Assembly: GCA_041645555.1 (NCBI GenBank)
Contig: JBAZPX010000001.1
Span: 204,731 to 268,730 of the forward strand
Length of the DNA stretch: 64,000 bases
DNA from: Patescibacteria group bacterium
GTDB taxonomy: Bacteria > Patescibacteriota > Patescibacteriia > Patescibacteriales > JAQTRU01
Direction: 5' to 3'
Part shown: positions 4,028 through 51,450 of the stretch, one piece after another
Layout: the number at the start of each line of letters is the position of its first letter
Position numbering within the stretch: position 1 is the stretch's first letter
The notes under the pieces: generated by a model
What the model saw: the letters and a program-made list of their open reading frames with translations, nothing else
What the model was told of the DNA's origin: nothing
The model's database searches: none
Position numbers and translations under genes: made by a program

Positions 4028-4140
4028 TGTCATTCCCGCGAAAGCGGGAATCCAGGAGTGAACCATACGAATTAGACTTTGCAGAAAAGAAGATTAAAAT
4101 CACGCAACCCTGGATTCCGGCTCGGAGGCCGGAATGACAA
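4028..4140. mobile_element. MITE-like element, family 2 (tgtcattcccgcgaaagcgggaatccagg ... cctggattccggctcggaggccggaatgaca)
   Basis: About 30-nt terminal inverted repeats, each itself a hairpin. The element is 113 bp with no ORF. Confidence 0.7.
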
Positions 4141-9485: not shown

Positions 9486-10721
9486 ATGGATAATATCTCA
9501 ATCTTGGACAAAATAATCAATAATCAGAAAGCCGAAGAAATAGCGAAATTAAATGCGGTGGAAATCGTAAATAATTTGCTGGGCGAACTGGCGGACAGGG
9601 AAAAAGACGTCCTTACCCGTCGTTTTGGTTTGCATGGCCAGGGCAAAGAAACCTTAGAAAAGGTGGGCCAGGCCCATAAGCTTACCAGGGAAAGAATAAG
9701 GCAGATTGAAGTTTCCGGCATAAAGAAACTGCGCCAGCTGGAAAAGCTCGGGAGTTATGTTGATATTTTAAAGAAAGTAACTTCGCAGCTTCTGGAAGAG
9801 CACGGCGGGCTTATGGAAAGGCAGTATCTGCTTAATGCTTTAGCTAAATTTTCCTTAAACGGCGACGGCCGGGAAAAAGACGAGGAGCTGATCCATAAAA
9901 GCCACCTTGATTTTCTTATTTCTAAATTATTGCCGGAAGAATTTGAAGAGGTAAGCGACTCCGAGTTATTTTTGGATTTTTATAAATTAAGATATCAAAC
10001 TCTTGATCATTTAGAAGAGTTATCCCTTGAATTGATTGAGAAGATAGAAAGCCTTAAAAAAATATTTAATACGGAAGAGATGATAGATATTTTCACTAAA
10101 CTGGAAGGCTATAATAAAAATCGTGAGAAATTTAATATTCCTTACAGCCTTGATATCTCAAGAATTTTAGGCAACAATTCTTTTGCGGAAAAATTTGAGG
10201 TCATAAACAGCCATAAAGTTTTATATTCCCTCCTGCGGGCTTTAAGGAAGGTTGAGCAGAATAAATTCGGCGATTGGGGAATTTATGACTGGCGGGAAAT
10301 AAAACCGAAGACCATAAACGATAAGATATACCTCGTCTTAAAAAACCATGGCAAGCCGATGCATTTTGCCGAGATTGCCGACCATATTAATCAGACCGGT
10401 TTTGACAGCAAAAAGGCCAATGCCGCCACGGTCCATAATGAGCTTATTCTCGACGAGAAATATGTTTTAGTCGGACGCGGCCTTTATGGCTTAAAAGAAT
10501 GGGGGTATAAAGAGGGTACGGTCGCTGACGTTATAAAGGATATTTTAACCCAAGCCGGCAAGCCCCTGACTCGCGACGAGATTATTGATAAGGTTTTAGA
10601 AAAACGTTTGGTAAAAAAGACGACTATAGTTTTAGCCCTAATGAACAGGGAAATGTTTGAGAAGGCCGGGAATAAATACCAGTTAATAGAAAGCTTAAAG
10701 ACGGCTGACGTAAACAAATAA
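9486..10721 (+). CDS. Sigma-70 region-4-like HTH protein with C-terminal HARE-HTH-like domains
   Basis: EKDVLTRRFGL...TLEKVGQAHKLTRERIRQIE resembles sigma region 4. The C-terminus has winged-helix segments (PMHFAEIADHI..., GKPLTRDEIIDKVL). Confidence 0.7.
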   Translation: MDNISILDKIINNQKAEEIAKLNAVEIVNNLLGELADREKDVLTRRFGLHGQGKETLEKVGQAHKLTRERIRQIEVSGIKKLRQLEKLGSYVDILKKVTSQLLEEHGGLMERQYLLNALAKFSLNGDGREKDEELIHKSHLDFLISKLLPEEFEEVSDSELFLDFYKLRYQTLDHLEELSLELIEKIESLKKIFNTEEMIDIFTKLEGYNKNREKFNIPYSLDISRILGNNSFAEKFEVINSHKVLYSLLRALRKVEQNKFGDWGIYDWREIKPKTINDKIYLVLKNHGKPMHFAEIADHINQTGFDSKKANAATVHNELILDEKYVLVGRGLYGLKEWGYKEGTVADVIKDILTQAGKPLTRDEIIDKVLEKRLVKKTTIVLALMNREMFEKAGNKYQLIESLKTADVNK

Positions 10722-16373: not shown

Positions 16374-17132
16374 ATGAATAATTTAGTTAAAAAAATAGCT
16401 AATTTCCTGGATCTAAAAGAATTAGGCAAAAGAGCCGCTACGGTTATTGTTTTAACTCTGACCGCAATTATTACGGTTTGGGTTTACGCGGCGTTTGTTG
16501 AGCCTTCAGTTGGCCCCAATTCTTCCGACCAGGATTTCGCCCAGAATATTTTAGGCAATAATGACGCTAATAACGATTTTAGCTCTTCTAATGTCGCTTC
16601 TAACGCCGACGGCAGTATTATTGAAAGAGAAGAGTATATCCAGACAGGAATCGGCACCAATGCGAGCGCGACTACGACACCCTCCGCAGCTTCCTCGCTT
16701 TGGAGCGGGTTGAAGTATATAGAAGGTAATATGTTGAACAAAAAAAAGTATTATTTGACTTCGGCCACGATGGAGGGCGGTGGGCCTTTGACCGCCTGCG
16801 CCTCTGGGTACCACTTCGCTTCATTATGGGAATTAATTGATCTTAATCAACACACTTACAACTCATCTCTTGGGATGTATTTGGATGATTCCGGGTTGTA
16901 TGGTCCTCCAGTCGGCACACTCGGGTGGATCAGGACCGGTGGTGTCTCTAATACCACAGTTACTGTAGGTACGGGAAATTGCGCCGCCTGGACATCAACT
17001 AGCGGAGCTCATTATGGAACTATGGCAAGGATAACAACATCATGGGCAGGGGGCGCCACAACCATCTCTCCTTGGGAAGGCGACATAGACTTTTGCAACA
17101 CACAGCACAGAGCGTGGTGCATGCAAAATTAA
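16374..17132 (+). CDS. Membrane-anchored surface protein: conserved N-terminal module plus Cys-containing C-terminal domain
   Basis: The N-terminal ~110 aa are homologous to the 44261 CDS (AAFVEP..GPNSSDQDFAQNILGNNDANNDFSSSNVASNADGSIIEREEY). Terminator ccgcagtc...gactgcgg-tttt at 17208-17237. Confidence 0.75.
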   Translation: MNNLVKKIANFLDLKELGKRAATVIVLTLTAIITVWVYAAFVEPSVGPNSSDQDFAQNILGNNDANNDFSSSNVASNADGSIIEREEYIQTGIGTNASATTTPSAASSLWSGLKYIEGNMLNKKKYYLTSATMEGGGPLTACASGYHFASLWELIDLNQHTYNSSLGMYLDDSGLYGPPVGTLGWIRTGGVSNTTVTVGTGNCAAWTSTSGAHYGTMARITTSWAGGATTISPWEGDIDFCNTQHRAWCMQN

Positions 17133-30620: not shown

Positions 30621-30742
30621 TTGTCATCTCGAGCGTAGCGAGAAATCTGTAATATCCTGCGAACGATAAGGACAAAGTGTTATTGCCGTTATTCGCGTAT
30701 TATAGATTTCTCTCCCGAGTGCTCTCGGGATCGAAATGACAA
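30621..30742. mobile_element. MITE-like non-coding element, family 1 (second copy)
   Basis: Same termini and internal blocks as 684-822. Confidence 0.7.
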
Positions 30743-34757: not shown

Positions 34758-34841
34758 TGCCCAGGGAGAGAATCGAACTCTCATGGACTTGCGTCCACAC
34801 GATTTTGAGTCGTGCGCGTCTACCAGTTCCGCCACCAGGGC
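34758..34841 (-). tRNA. tRNA-Leu (anticodon CAA), class II with long variable arm; CCA not encoded
   Basis: Minus strand reads GCCCTGGTGGCGGAACTGGTAGACGCGCACGACTCAAAATCGTGTGGACGCAAGTCCATGAGAGTTCGATTCTCTCCCTGGGCA. T-arm GAGAG-TTCGATT-CTCTC, anticodon loop CTCAAAA, one U-U mismatch in the acceptor stem. Confidence 0.85.
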
Positions 34842-43835: not shown

Positions 43836-43848
43836 AAAATTTTTTTCT

Positions 43849-44250
43849 GTCATTGCGAGTCCCGAAGCCTCGGGACGAAGCAATCTCTGGTTAAATAGAA
43901 AAACATGTTAAACGAACGATACTATTTTGTTTATATAAACACCAATAAAACCCACAACGTTTTTTATACCGGAGTGACCAATAATTTATTAAATAGGAAT
44001 TACCAGCATAAGAGCAAAGAGAATAAATTAAATTTCACAGCCAAATATAAGGTAAATAAATTAGTCTATTGCGAGACGTTTTCCGATATCCGTGATGCCA
44101 TTGCCAGAGAAAAGCAAATCAAAGGTGGTTCCAGAAAAGATAAAATCAACCTTATAATTAAATTAAACCCGGAGTGGAAAGATTTAAGCTTGGATATGTA
44201 AAACCAGAGATTGCTTCGTCTCCCGCCTCGGCGGGATCCTCGCAATGACA
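43849..44250 (+). mobile_element. IR-bounded element carrying a GIY-YIG nuclease gene
   Basis: The left arm tgtcattgcgag...cgaagcaatctctggtt is the reverse complement of the right arm aaccagagattgcttcg...ctcgcaatgaca. The ORF stop abuts the right arm. Confidence 0.75.
43905..44201 (+). CDS. GIY-YIG nuclease family protein (98 aa)
   Basis: YFVYINTNKTHNVFYTGVTNNLLNRNYQHK matches the GIY-(X)n-YIG pattern, with REKQIKGGSRKDK at the C-terminus. Confidence 0.85.
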   Translation: MLNERYYFVYINTNKTHNVFYTGVTNNLLNRNYQHKSKENKLNFTAKYKVNKLVYCETFSDIRDAIAREKQIKGGSRKDKINLIIKLNPEWKDLSLDM

Positions 44251-44260
44251 AGGGAAAATA

Positions 44261-45277
44261 ATGGATAAGCAAACCCTGAAAACTAAAATTAAAGCCCAAG
44301 CCAAGAAAATCGCTTGGCGGGCAATCACCACGGTTATTTTAACTCTAACCGCGGTTATTACGGTTTGGGCTTATGCCGCGTTTGTTGAACCCTTAGTCGG
44401 ACCGAATTCCTCTGACCAGGATTTTGCCCAGAATATTTTAGGCAATAACGACGCTAACAATGATTTTAGTTCTTCTAACGTCGCTTCTAACGCTGACGGC
44501 AGTATTATCGAAAGAGAAGAATATTTGCAAACCCAAATCGGCACTTATGCTGACGCCACGACTACGCCGAGTGCGGCAAGTTCGGTGTTCGCGGCGTTGA
44601 AGGGATTGGATTCTTCGTATCAGGAATACACTAGCGGAAGTGGGAACTGGACGGCTCCGGCTGGTGTCTATTTGATTAATGTGCTCCTTGTCGCCGGAGG
44701 CGGAGGTGGCGGTTCTACAGTGGCAAATTCAGGAGCAAGTGGCGGAGGCGGAGGTGGTGAAACTTTTTCTATGATGAATTATAAAGTTGTGCCCGGAACT
44801 GCTTATGCATATGCAGTAGGCGCTGGAGGTTCCGGAGCAACAGGAAACGACGCGGATGGTTCAAATGGCTCAACCTCCACCTTCATGGGTTATTCTGTTG
44901 CGGCTGGTTATGGTGGGAAGAGGGGAACGGTTATGACCGCCGGAAATGGTGGCGGGGTGGGTGGCGGAACAGCCGGCGGTACTCCAGGAAGTGGTACGAC
45001 GATGGGAGGAGCACTTTTTTCGAGGACTGGCGGAGGAGCAGGGAGCAATGGCAATAGCGCCTCCGCCGCTGGAAGCAGTATCGGTTCTGGCGGTGGACTA
45101 ACGGCTCCGGGCGGCGCAAGCTATCGTTCATCTCCGGATGGTCCTTATACGAATGGGGTTGGAATAAATGCACCTGCCAATAGTGGTGCCGGCGGCAGCG
45201 GAGCAACTAATTCGAACGCAGGCGGGATTTTGCCTGGAGGAAATGGTGGTTCTGGTTATATTTTAATAACTTGGTGA
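44261..45277 (+). CDS. Membrane-anchored surface protein: conserved N-terminal module plus glycine-rich C-terminal domain
   Basis: The N-terminus is homologous to the 16374 CDS. The C-terminus has GGGGGGS.../GGNGGSGYILITW glycine-rich repeats. Confidence 0.8.
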   Translation: MDKQTLKTKIKAQAKKIAWRAITTVILTLTAVITVWAYAAFVEPLVGPNSSDQDFAQNILGNNDANNDFSSSNVASNADGSIIEREEYLQTQIGTYADATTTPSAASSVFAALKGLDSSYQEYTSGSGNWTAPAGVYLINVLLVAGGGGGGSTVANSGASGGGGGGETFSMMNYKVVPGTAYAYAVGAGGSGATGNDADGSNGSTSTFMGYSVAAGYGGKRGTVMTAGNGGGVGGGTAGGTPGSGTTMGGALFSRTGGGAGSNGNSASAAGSSIGSGGGLTAPGGASYRSSPDGPYTNGVGINAPANSGAGGSGATNSNAGGILPGGNGGSGYILITW

Positions 45278-45313
45278 GTAATAATAAGTGCAAAAATTAA
45301 AAGAGCTTCCTTT

Positions 45314-45514
45314 TGTCATTGCGAGGAAGGAGTTCCACAGAATTGCGGGACGACTGACGAAGCAATCTAAGGTTAGCTGGAAGTAACAAGAAAATTAAAA
45401 AACATCATTTTATCCGAATAAATACTAATGATAGACATTTAACAGAATCAGACTTTATACCTTTAAACCAGAGATTGCTTCGGCTCCCGCCTCGGCGGGA
45501 TCCTCGCAATGACA
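45314..45514 (+). mobile_element. ORF-less derivative of the GIY-YIG element
   Basis: The right arm at 45466-45514 differs at 1 of 49 nt from 44202-44250. The left arm starts tgtcattgcgag...gaagcaatctaaggtt. The interior is only ~90 nt. Confidence 0.7.
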
Positions 45515-50980: not shown

Positions 50981-51450
50981 ATAATATCAGGGTAAGCGAA
51001 TAGTCGATCGCTTGAGAAAACTTGAGCGGTAGGAAAGTCCGGACTCCCGCCTACGCTAAAGCTTCGGCGGGCAAGTCGTAAAGATTTTGCCTGCTAAGTG
51101 ATTTAGTTAGGTGCCATGGCAGCGGGTAACGCCCGCCAGAAGTAATTCTAGGGAAAGTGCCACAGAGACTATACTAATCAATGCGAAGCATTGGTCAAAC
51201 GTGAAAAGTTCTAGGGTGTGTAAATTGATCTCGGATATCCGTTTAATTTACGCTACTTGGATCGTCCTCTGGCAACAGAGTGACGTGGTAAACCCTGCCT
51301 GAAGCAAGAGCAAACCCCGCTCAGAATGTTAAAGCATTTGAGCGGGATGAAAAGTGGCTCGCTTGATCCCGAGAGCGATTTCGGGACTAGATAGATGACT
51401 ATTTAAAACAAAATCCGGCTTACAGCTTGCCCTGATATTAGTGGAATTTA
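50981..51450 (+). ncRNA. rnpB: RNase P RNA (bacterial type A-like), enlarged
   Basis: GGAAAGTCCGGAC (P4 5' strand), GGTGCC...GGGTAACGCCC, AGTGCCACAGAGAC, and AGATAGATGACTAT...ACAAAATCCGGCTTAC (P4 3' strand). P1 pairs aaattccaataatatcagggtaagc with gcttgccctgatattagtggaattt. P2 pairs aatagtc with gactatt. The ends are approximate. Confidence 0.85.

Follow-up and report, generated by a model that had tools for sequence, protein, structure and literature searches.

A likely SRM–ssn–SRM cassette with two-tier hairpin arms beside a variable surface-protein gene in a Patescibacteria genome

We analyzed a stretch of 64,000 nucleotides from a Patescibacteria group bacterium (assembly GCA_041645555.1, contig JBAZPX010000001.1, positions 204,731 to 268,730 of the forward strand), hereafter the window, in which two units delimited by inverted, hairpin-forming arms bracket the gene of a glycine-rich (Gly-rich) surface protein. 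The first of them, unit A, carries a small GIY-YIG nuclease gene, and the second, unit B, is devoid of open reading frames (ORFs). These constituents recall the Ssn/SRM system described by Chenal et al. (Nat Commun 2025; PMC11893778), in which single-domain GIY-YIG proteins of about 94 aa (the Ssn proteins; CDD cd10448, GIY-YIG_unchar_3) are encoded by ssn genes flanked by hairpin repeats, namely the NTS (CGTCATTCCCGCGMAVGCGGGAATCYRG), generalized as SRM. We consider it very likely that unit A is an SRM–ssn–SRM cassette with recognized hairpins and that unit B is a gene-less pair, similar to REPINs (paired repetitive extragenic palindromic [REP] sequences) or to miniature inverted-repeat transposable elements. 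The locus comprises the following features, with coordinates given in the window:

43848-44250 (T43848 to A44250): unit A, ssn flanked by two inverted 45-49-nt arms.
43848-43892, + strand: left arm of unit A (45 nt), a two-tier SRM-type hairpin with its head outward, composed of TGTCATTGCGAG, then the hairpin TCCCGAAGCCTCGGGA, then CGAAGCAATCTCTGGTT; its parts are a TGTC head, an ATTGC/GCAAT outer stem, a GA/GAA internal loop, the inner hairpin TCCCGA-AGCC-TCGGGA, and the tail CTCTGGTT.
43905-44201, + strand: ssn gene, coding for a 98-aa single-domain GIY-YIG nuclease assigned to the Ssn family by PF01541 and by homology to SsnA.
44202-44250, - strand: right arm of unit A, the same boxes inverted, head outward, with the inner hairpin CCCGCC-GAGG-CGGG(A).
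44261-45277, + strand: bracketed gene, coding for a 338-aa membrane-anchored Gly-rich protein (Gly_rich_2; PF21722, E=1.8e-15).
45314-45514: unit B, an ORF-less inverted arm pair.
45314-45374, + strand: left arm of unit B, with outer boxes as in unit A and a longer, unrelated inner hairpin.
45375-45465, no strand assigned: interior of unit B, without ORF, in which ssn codons 3-17 may have left a relic at 45394-45438.
45466-45514, - strand: right arm of unit B.

The stop codon of ssn (TAA, 44199-44201) is immediately followed by the right arm of unit A, and the nucleotides 45465-45514 are identical to 44201-44250 at 49 of 50 positions, so that a 50-nt direct repeat flanks the Gly-rich gene, which is itself a neighbor of the units and lies outside the cassette. 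Beyond the locus stand the genes of a DUF4012 protein (upstream) and of a DUF11-like protein (downstream). The original prediction, made from the letters of the window, had described the two units, their arms, the gene lying between them, the contact between the nuclease stop codon and the right arm, and the hairpin nature of each arm, all of which hold, with the start of unit A placed at 43848. The same layout recurs in three independent metagenome assemblies (loci L121, L122, and L207), on which basis an assembly artefact or a chance arrangement was rejected.

The nuclease matches PF01541 over residues 6-82 (E=1.3e-14) and has no second domain, and its relatives are 91-135 aa long. Compared with the SsnA orthologue of Neisseria gonorrhoeae (94 aa; locus L203, 1189-1473, with canonical NTS repeats on both sides), it shows 38% identity over 90 aa (BLASTP, E=1e-19; hhalign probability 99.2%), and its residues Y10, Y21, and E69 align with gonococcal Y6, Y17, and E64, which are the SsnA residues mutated by Chenal et al. 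(PMC11893778). Y10, Y21, R31, H35, and E69 are conserved, and the catalytic motifs are kept in an alignment of 28 relatives. A tblastn search with the window protein against a 7.3-Gb plasmid collection gave E=1e-10, the criterion for SsnA homology in the published work being E<1e-10 (PMC11893778). At the level of sequence, these comparisons show a full-length SsnA homologue in which the catalytic residues are intact, and by analogy with SsnA the window nuclease would be an enzyme of the Ssn family specific for single-stranded DNA (ssDNA), this specificity and its cleavage activity both being predicted from the published enzyme. Searches of NCBIfam and of PDB sequences with the family profile gave no match to the nuclease, and the literature on COG2827, UPF0213, and YhbQ held nothing useful for it. 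The protein family is very populous, with all but two of 8000 scored candidates at E<=0.001 among the matches listed, and many of its candidate matches lie on short contigs. As a side observation, three records of the plasmid collection are chromosome-sized (2.2-4.9 Mb) and are filed as plasmids through a labeling error (L203, NZ_CP119140.1; L215, NZ_AP026896.1; L216, CP090106.1); it was through the mislabeled L203 record that the gonococcal ssnA locus could be reached.

The window contains exactly four copies of the 11-mer GTCATTGCGAG, all of them at the Ssn locus, and when one mismatch is allowed the window holds five matches against 0.6 expected, a number reached in none of 100 shuffles of its 64 kb. 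According to the computed structures, every arm folds on both strands into an outer stem (ATTGC/GCAAT), an internal loop (GA/GAA), and an inner G+C-rich hairpin. To look at this architecture across bacteria, we searched one genome per species with the pattern GTCATTGCGAG-N6-36-CGAAGCAATC and obtained at least 120 loci, spread over many phyla. Among the matches listed, to which the counts in this paragraph refer, the hosts belong to Alpha- and Gammaproteobacteria, Chloroflexota, Patescibacteria, Cyanobacteria, Bacteroidota, Planctomycetota, Zixibacteria, Helicobacter, Sporomusa, and others. The segment between the two boxes is highly variable (123 distinct sequences) and yet it pairs, the inner helices having on average 2.57 consecutive Watson–Crick pairs against 1.34 after shuffling, with none of 200 shuffles above 1.55. 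GTC is preceded by C or T in 139 of 151 copies (92%), and adjacent arms are inverted (+/-) with their GTC heads outward in 89 of 112 pairs, mostly across spacers of 8-33 nt; the heads-outward inverted pair is the dominant arrangement of these repeats across bacteria. Hairpins headed by (C/T)GTC also proliferate massively without any ORF.

Judging from these features, the arms appear to constitute a distinct two-tier class of SRM, TGTCATTGCGAG-(variable hairpin)-CGAAGCAATC, present in many phyla. In effect, a two-tier arm can be described as a short NTS-like stem in which the loop is swapped for an internal loop followed by another hairpin that varies freely, a design that fits the published tolerance of the NTS loop, which can be removed, replaced, or extended (PMC11893778). 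In the Neisseria system, Ssn binds the folded repeat as ssDNA only and on one strand only, and cuts a few nucleotides upstream of it, cleavage depending critically on the GTC before the palindrome and binding on the C that follows the palindrome (PMC11893778). The degenerate SRM pattern HGTCWYN(0-2)YYVSBRHN(0-5)WNVSBRGN(0-2)RNCYNB matches none of the four arms, when it does match a positive control and the window site at 4028. The arms nevertheless keep the frame that SsnA requires, with GTC directly 5' of the palindrome, ATT...AAT, and C directly 3', and it is by analogy with SsnA that this Ssn clade would recognize them. A literature search for the 11-mer box returned chance primer matches only.

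The association between arms and ssn genes extends well beyond the window. When arm modules were sought within 200 nt of the gene at 80 metagenome loci encoding relatives of the nuclease (52-77% identity), they were found on both sides at 44 loci and on only one of two available flanks at 18 others, up to 18 arms being present at some loci. The usual geometry is that of the window, with about 20 nt between the end of the + arm and the ATG, and the - arm beginning 4-30 nt past the stop codon. Among the matches listed from the genome scan, a single locus carries a close homologue (L045, from a member of the Planctomycetota) and its layout is also that of the window, and heads-outward pairs accompany even the distant homologues of Aeromonas, Sphingobium, and Novosphingobium. 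The hairpin class follows the protein clade: two-tier hairpins of the GAG...CGAAG type are found in the window clade and in Planktothrix (58% identity), when simple hairpins accompany the homologues of Aeromonas (48%), Sphingobium (37%), Novosphingobium (38%), and Neisseria (38%). The Planktothrix homologue, encoded on plasmid p1 of Planktothrix agardhii (L204, 1192-1476) with tandemly reiterated two-tier arms, lies between an MmeI-type restriction-modification gene and the DISARM gene drmA, that is, inside a defense island.

Other repeats of this kind are dispersed in the window, in which four more SRM-type pairs were found apart from the arms of unit A, for a total of five SRM-type units of three classes and one ssn gene. 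An ORF-less, heads-outward pair of the canonical NTS type is formed by 4028-4055 on the + strand (TGTCATTCCCGCGAAAGCGGGAATCCAG) and 4110-4139 on the - strand (the reverse complement of TGTCATTCCGGCCTCCGAGCCGGAATCCAG); its first copy matches the published SRM pattern and is almost the Neisseria NTS consensus, despite the Patescibacteria host. Two further ORF-less, heads-outward pairs, at 685-821 and 30622-30741, belong to a third hairpin class, TGTCATYTCGA-(variable hairpin)-GAGARATCTRTAATA. The sole Rfam hits of the window at gathering thresholds are an RNase P RNA (class A, 174.8 bits, 50988-51438) and a tRNA gene (34758-34841).

Comparison with related DNA shows that the cassette is a discrete unit that occurs among at least three unrelated sets of genes, the homology ending precisely at the TGTCA/TGACA termini. 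The first context is that of the window. The second was found in the same sample (L205/L206), where an ssn copy 93% identical to that of unit A stands between unrelated genes, namely an unknown ORF and a VanZ/QueH gene: the homology between L205 and unit A begins exactly at TGTCATTGCGAG (T43848) and ends exactly at CTCGCAATGACA (A44250), beyond which the flanks are unrelated, in line with the view of unit A as a discrete element put forward in the original prediction. Between these two copies, the inner hairpin of the left arm differs by a compensatory change from T-A to C-G, and that of the right arm by wholesale replacement. The third context is provided by L214, where a cassette has a GT4 glycosyltransferase gene on one side and a 146-aa ORF on the other. 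At the site of the L214 cassette, two related loci carry what is left of such a unit, with the first 18 nt of a left arm (TGTCATTGCGAGGAGCGT) remaining in L213 and, in L212, a perfect 16-nt palindrome (TGTCATTGCAATGACA) that corresponds to both termini joined over a GC microhomology. Sites with joined termini occur twice in the 1.39 Mb of DNA fetched, against about 0.005 expected. Decay of the cassette thus leaves truncated arms and palindromes of joined termini behind, and ORF-less derivatives and footprints of such cassettes do arise. L214 also encodes a second, unrelated GIY-YIG protein (10434-10694, 86 aa, MYYVYILFSQKDRKLYIGYTNNL...) with an inverted repeat of its own (CACCCGCCCAAATTTTTGGAT / ATCCAAAAATTTGGGCGGG) that is not SRM-like, and which may be another small nuclease-plus-repeat cassette.

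How unit B relates to such derivatives is less sharply drawn. Its interior had been proposed to be a deletion remnant of the nuclease gene, a proposal that nucleotide comparison does not bear out, the similarity to ssn being insignificant (score 32 against a null mean of 32.8). At the protein level, one frame at 45394-45438 (IKKHHFIRINTNDRH) matches positions 3-17 of the Ssn N-terminal profile at the same offset from the left arm, with a score of 5.3 bits that was reached in 3 of 300 shuffles. The unit B spacer, at 105 nt, falls in the long tail of the spacer distribution among the matches listed. Together, these observations are suggestive of a derivation of unit B from an ssn-bearing unit, and unit B is probably a decayed or recombined derivative. 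The right arm of unit A resembles that of unit B (49/50) more than it does the one of the 93%-identical copy, which points to local exchange between the arms.

If both units had been acquired and were transferred together with the gene that they enclose, as in the composite-transposon-like layout of the original prediction, then they would move or replace the Gly-rich gene as a single block of 1.67 kb (43848-45514). In favor of this scenario, the gene lies exactly between the units, the right arms are identical at 49 of 50 positions, the head of the encoded protein is hypervariable, and the whole block is missing in four close relatives. The latter were found among syntenic loci, retrieved through orthologues of the downstream gene (81-89% identity): in L208/L209, L210-L212, and L213, the DUF4012 gene is followed after 160-400 nt by the DUF11-like gene, and the slot between them contains no ssn, no Gly-rich gene, and no SRM. 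However, these apparently empty relatives offer no clean junction at the block ends. Except in L213, where no obvious palindromic element is seen, their spacers are occupied by other, unrelated small palindromic repeats in variable copy number, so that no clean empty-site junction can be defined for the window block. In three of them (L210, 4670-4920; L211, 3945-4240; L212, 4925-5225), the repeats are units of the form TCTCCCGCCAC...GTGGCGGGAGA with cores GGCGGGATCCCGCC, two modules being present in the DUF4012/DUF11 spacer of L210 and three in those of L211 and L212; as the core resembles the inner hairpin of the window right arms (CCCGCCTCGGCGGGATCC), this hints at exchange between repeat families. 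Traces of the excision type, which the original prediction proposed to look for, are found at the site of the L214 cassette, as the truncated arm of L213 and the joined termini of L212, and not at the window block.

The Gly-rich gene itself tells against joint movement. In L214, its orthologue occupies the same slot behind a different pair, an ORF-less one of the canonical SRM class, which ends 10 nt before the ATG, a spacing as in the window, with no SRM downstream, where only 26 nt separate the gene from the next one. Identity between the two orthologous proteins amounts to 87% in residues 1-117 and to 37% in the glycine-rich residues 118-338, which is in agreement with the variable head attributed earlier to the protein, and the window protein has an N-terminal transmembrane segment. 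A paralogue of 252 aa (16374-17132) has the first ~117 residues in common with it (70% identity) and an unrelated C-terminus containing cysteine and tryptophan, which points to a family of surface proteins combining a shared anchor with exchangeable heads. No arms lie near this paralogue, no Gly-rich homologue stands beside other Ssn or arm loci among L001-L202, and neither the block nor the gene was seen in a second genomic context across these loci. The locus is polymorphic, as had been foreseen, with units and gene lacking in L208-L213 and the gene present with another SRM pair in L214. The slot is a hypervariable intergenic hot spot and the gene that of a variable-head surface protein, and the units most likely bracket this gene through repeated colonization of a permissive hypervariable slot and not as parts of a composite transposon, a scenario to which we attach little credence.

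An explanation of another kind would be that the arms act mainly at the RNA or structural level, like REP sequences serving as mRNA stabilizers, terminators, or supercoiling sites, the nuclease gene being incidental. Such roles have been proposed for REP families (Di Nocera et al. 2013, PMC3733652), and the arms are indeed intergenic in an apparently co-oriented gene array and have a stable RNA fold. Yet no Rfam family was found at the arms, at gathering thresholds or at permissive E-values, and a terminator scan made no call there and revealed no terminator-like T-tract. Moreover, whichever way the boxes lie with respect to transcription, their sequence is conserved, a tight association links the arms to an ssDNA nuclease gene in different phyla, and SsnA does not bind RNA (PMC11893778), all of which makes this explanation very improbable. 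Finally, it is hardly conceivable that the nuclease, initially taken for one of the homing type, is a free-standing homing endonuclease (Seg/I-TevI type) that breaks double-stranded DNA (dsDNA) in gene-less alleles for repair to copy the gene in, despite its GIY-YIG catalytic domain, its intergenic position, and its patchy distribution, since this Ssn-family protein has 98 aa, a single domain, and no DNA-binding module, its closest characterized relative has no dsDNA activity (PMC11893778), and the ends of its unit are structured inverted hairpins that proliferate massively without an ORF, which is atypical of homing-endonuclease genes.

For the favored reading, in which unit A is an SRM–ssn–SRM cassette and unit B its gene-less counterpart, a mechanism can be proposed from the enzymology of SsnA. 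Whenever the DNA becomes single-stranded, during replication, repair, or DNA uptake, each arm would fold, and Ssn would bind the folded arm on the strand bearing the forward motif and hydrolyze the backbone at a distance of a few nucleotides on the 5' side of the GTC head. With heads outward, the cuts would fall just outside each unit end and on opposite strands, the predicted positions being just left of 43848 and of 45314 on the top strand, and just right of 44250 and of 45514 on the bottom strand. As the heads at 44250 and 45314 face the Gly-rich gene, cuts would be expected within about 10-35 nt of both ends of its coding sequence, and the gene so bracketed would be in the NTS-gene-NTS configuration known from N. 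meningitidis. The spread of the units is more speculative and would probably result from host recombination or repair acting at the nicks, a contribution of the host being needed inasmuch as a GIY-YIG hydrolase is incapable of strand transfer by itself.

Several observations weigh against this reading. The four arms fail the published SRM pattern; with up to 2 mismatches allowed per box, arms went undetected at 12 of the 80 loci of relatives; and the arms closest to gonococcal ssnA face inward, arm orientation varying within the family. With respect to mobility, no target-site duplication was found between the unit A and L205 copies, and no clean empty site for unit A was found in the related loci, nor one for the L205 context, the flanking genes of which occur neither in the window nor at any of the other loci. 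In addition, the three assemblies sharing the layout (L121, L122, and L207) represent one population and are identical, with no sign of current activity. A bolder version, which we regard as rather doubtful, would turn the cassette into an element that moves autonomously by a mechanism of a new class, in which a hydrolytic GIY-YIG ssDNA nuclease nicks just outside the outward-facing hairpin ends, the host completes the copy-in by replication or recombination, the very large (C/T)GTC families of palindromic repeats known from many phyla are seeded in this way, and flanking pairs act as a recombination-insulated or cassette-exchange module that diversifies the surface-protein heads of the candidate phyla radiation (CPR).

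From a comparative perspective, the locus belongs to the kind described in 2025, and what is new lies in the two-tier hairpin, the CPR host, and the comparative evidence for mobility and decay; Chenal et al. mention neither Patescibacteria nor a two-tier architecture (PMC11893778). The window locus and the Ssn/SRM system share a single-domain GIY-YIG protein of about 94-98 aa with full-length homology and aligned catalytic Y/Y/E, inverted hairpin repeats on both sides of the gene, and many ORF-less copies that are mostly inverted pairs. They also have in common a (C/T)GTC head, a palindrome starting with ATT, a trailing C, and a pyrimidine-rich tail, as well as the proximity of the repeats to a membrane- or surface-protein gene, NTS clusters being known to adjoin membrane-protein genes (PMC11893778). 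In contrast, the window arms span 37-53 nt, in which a 5-bp stem and an internal loop carry a hypervariable inner hairpin, when the NTS consists of a plain 8-bp stem closed by a 4-nt loop; the window arms are missed by the published SRM pattern and reside in Patescibacteria; and those nearest to ssn point outward, unlike those of the gonococcus. Chenal et al. noted the NTS-ssnA-NTS unit as resembling an insertion sequence (IS) and only hypothesized its mobility (PMC11893778), whereas three insertion contexts and decay footprints are documented here.

A second kinship is with the CGTC/TGTC-tagged REPs of Di Nocera et al. (2013), which have stems starting with A-T pairs and short tails, are known from many phyla, mainly in the form of inverted dimers, and were described as "apparently lacking a dedicated transposase" (PMC3733652). 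The window arms resemble them by their unpaired CGTC/TGTC tag, their A-T stem start (ATT in the window), their short unpaired tail, and their intergenic inverted dimers in many phyla, and differ by an interrupted stem, a nested hairpin, and a CTC tail, in place of the stems of 8-9 bp, loops of 4-5 nt, and CCA tail of the described families, a geometry that the window pair at 4028-4139 does fit. With REP/REPIN-RAYT systems and IS200/IS605 elements, the locus shares a single nuclease gene amid inverted hairpin repeats, the spread of gene-less pairs, and, as would be expected in the window, an enzyme that reads a folded ssDNA hairpin and cuts beside a short tag. It differs from them by its tag, (C/T)GTC and not GTAG, and by its hydrolytic GIY-YIG enzyme in place of an HUH/Y1 transposase, which implies, unlike for the latter, no covalent intermediate and no intrinsic strand-transfer chemistry.

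The existence of a second, pan-bacterial hairpin architecture that the published motif misses means that SRM censuses underestimate these repeats, and the two-tier class suggests that Ssn tolerates, or even reads, an internal loop and a nested hairpin, so that the enzyme–hairpin pair may serve as a new specificity for ssDNA tools. The findings are of use for extending SRM detection and for testing the recombination of SRM-flanked surface genes. They also bring comparative evidence for the movement and decay of the cassette, in the form of three contexts delimited by exact cassette ends, of an arm cut short, and of footprints with joined termini. For the CPR host, the presence of repeats beside a variable surface-protein gene, seen at this one locus, draws a possible parallel to Neisseria: in N. 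meningitidis, the NTS-gene-NTS configuration lowers homologous replacement by transforming DNA (PMC11893778), and by analogy the repeats may influence recombination at the surface-protein gene of the window. With regard to the family as a whole, Ssn becomes a candidate dedicated enzyme for the superfamily of CGTC-tagged REPs, which was an orphan when it was described in 2013.

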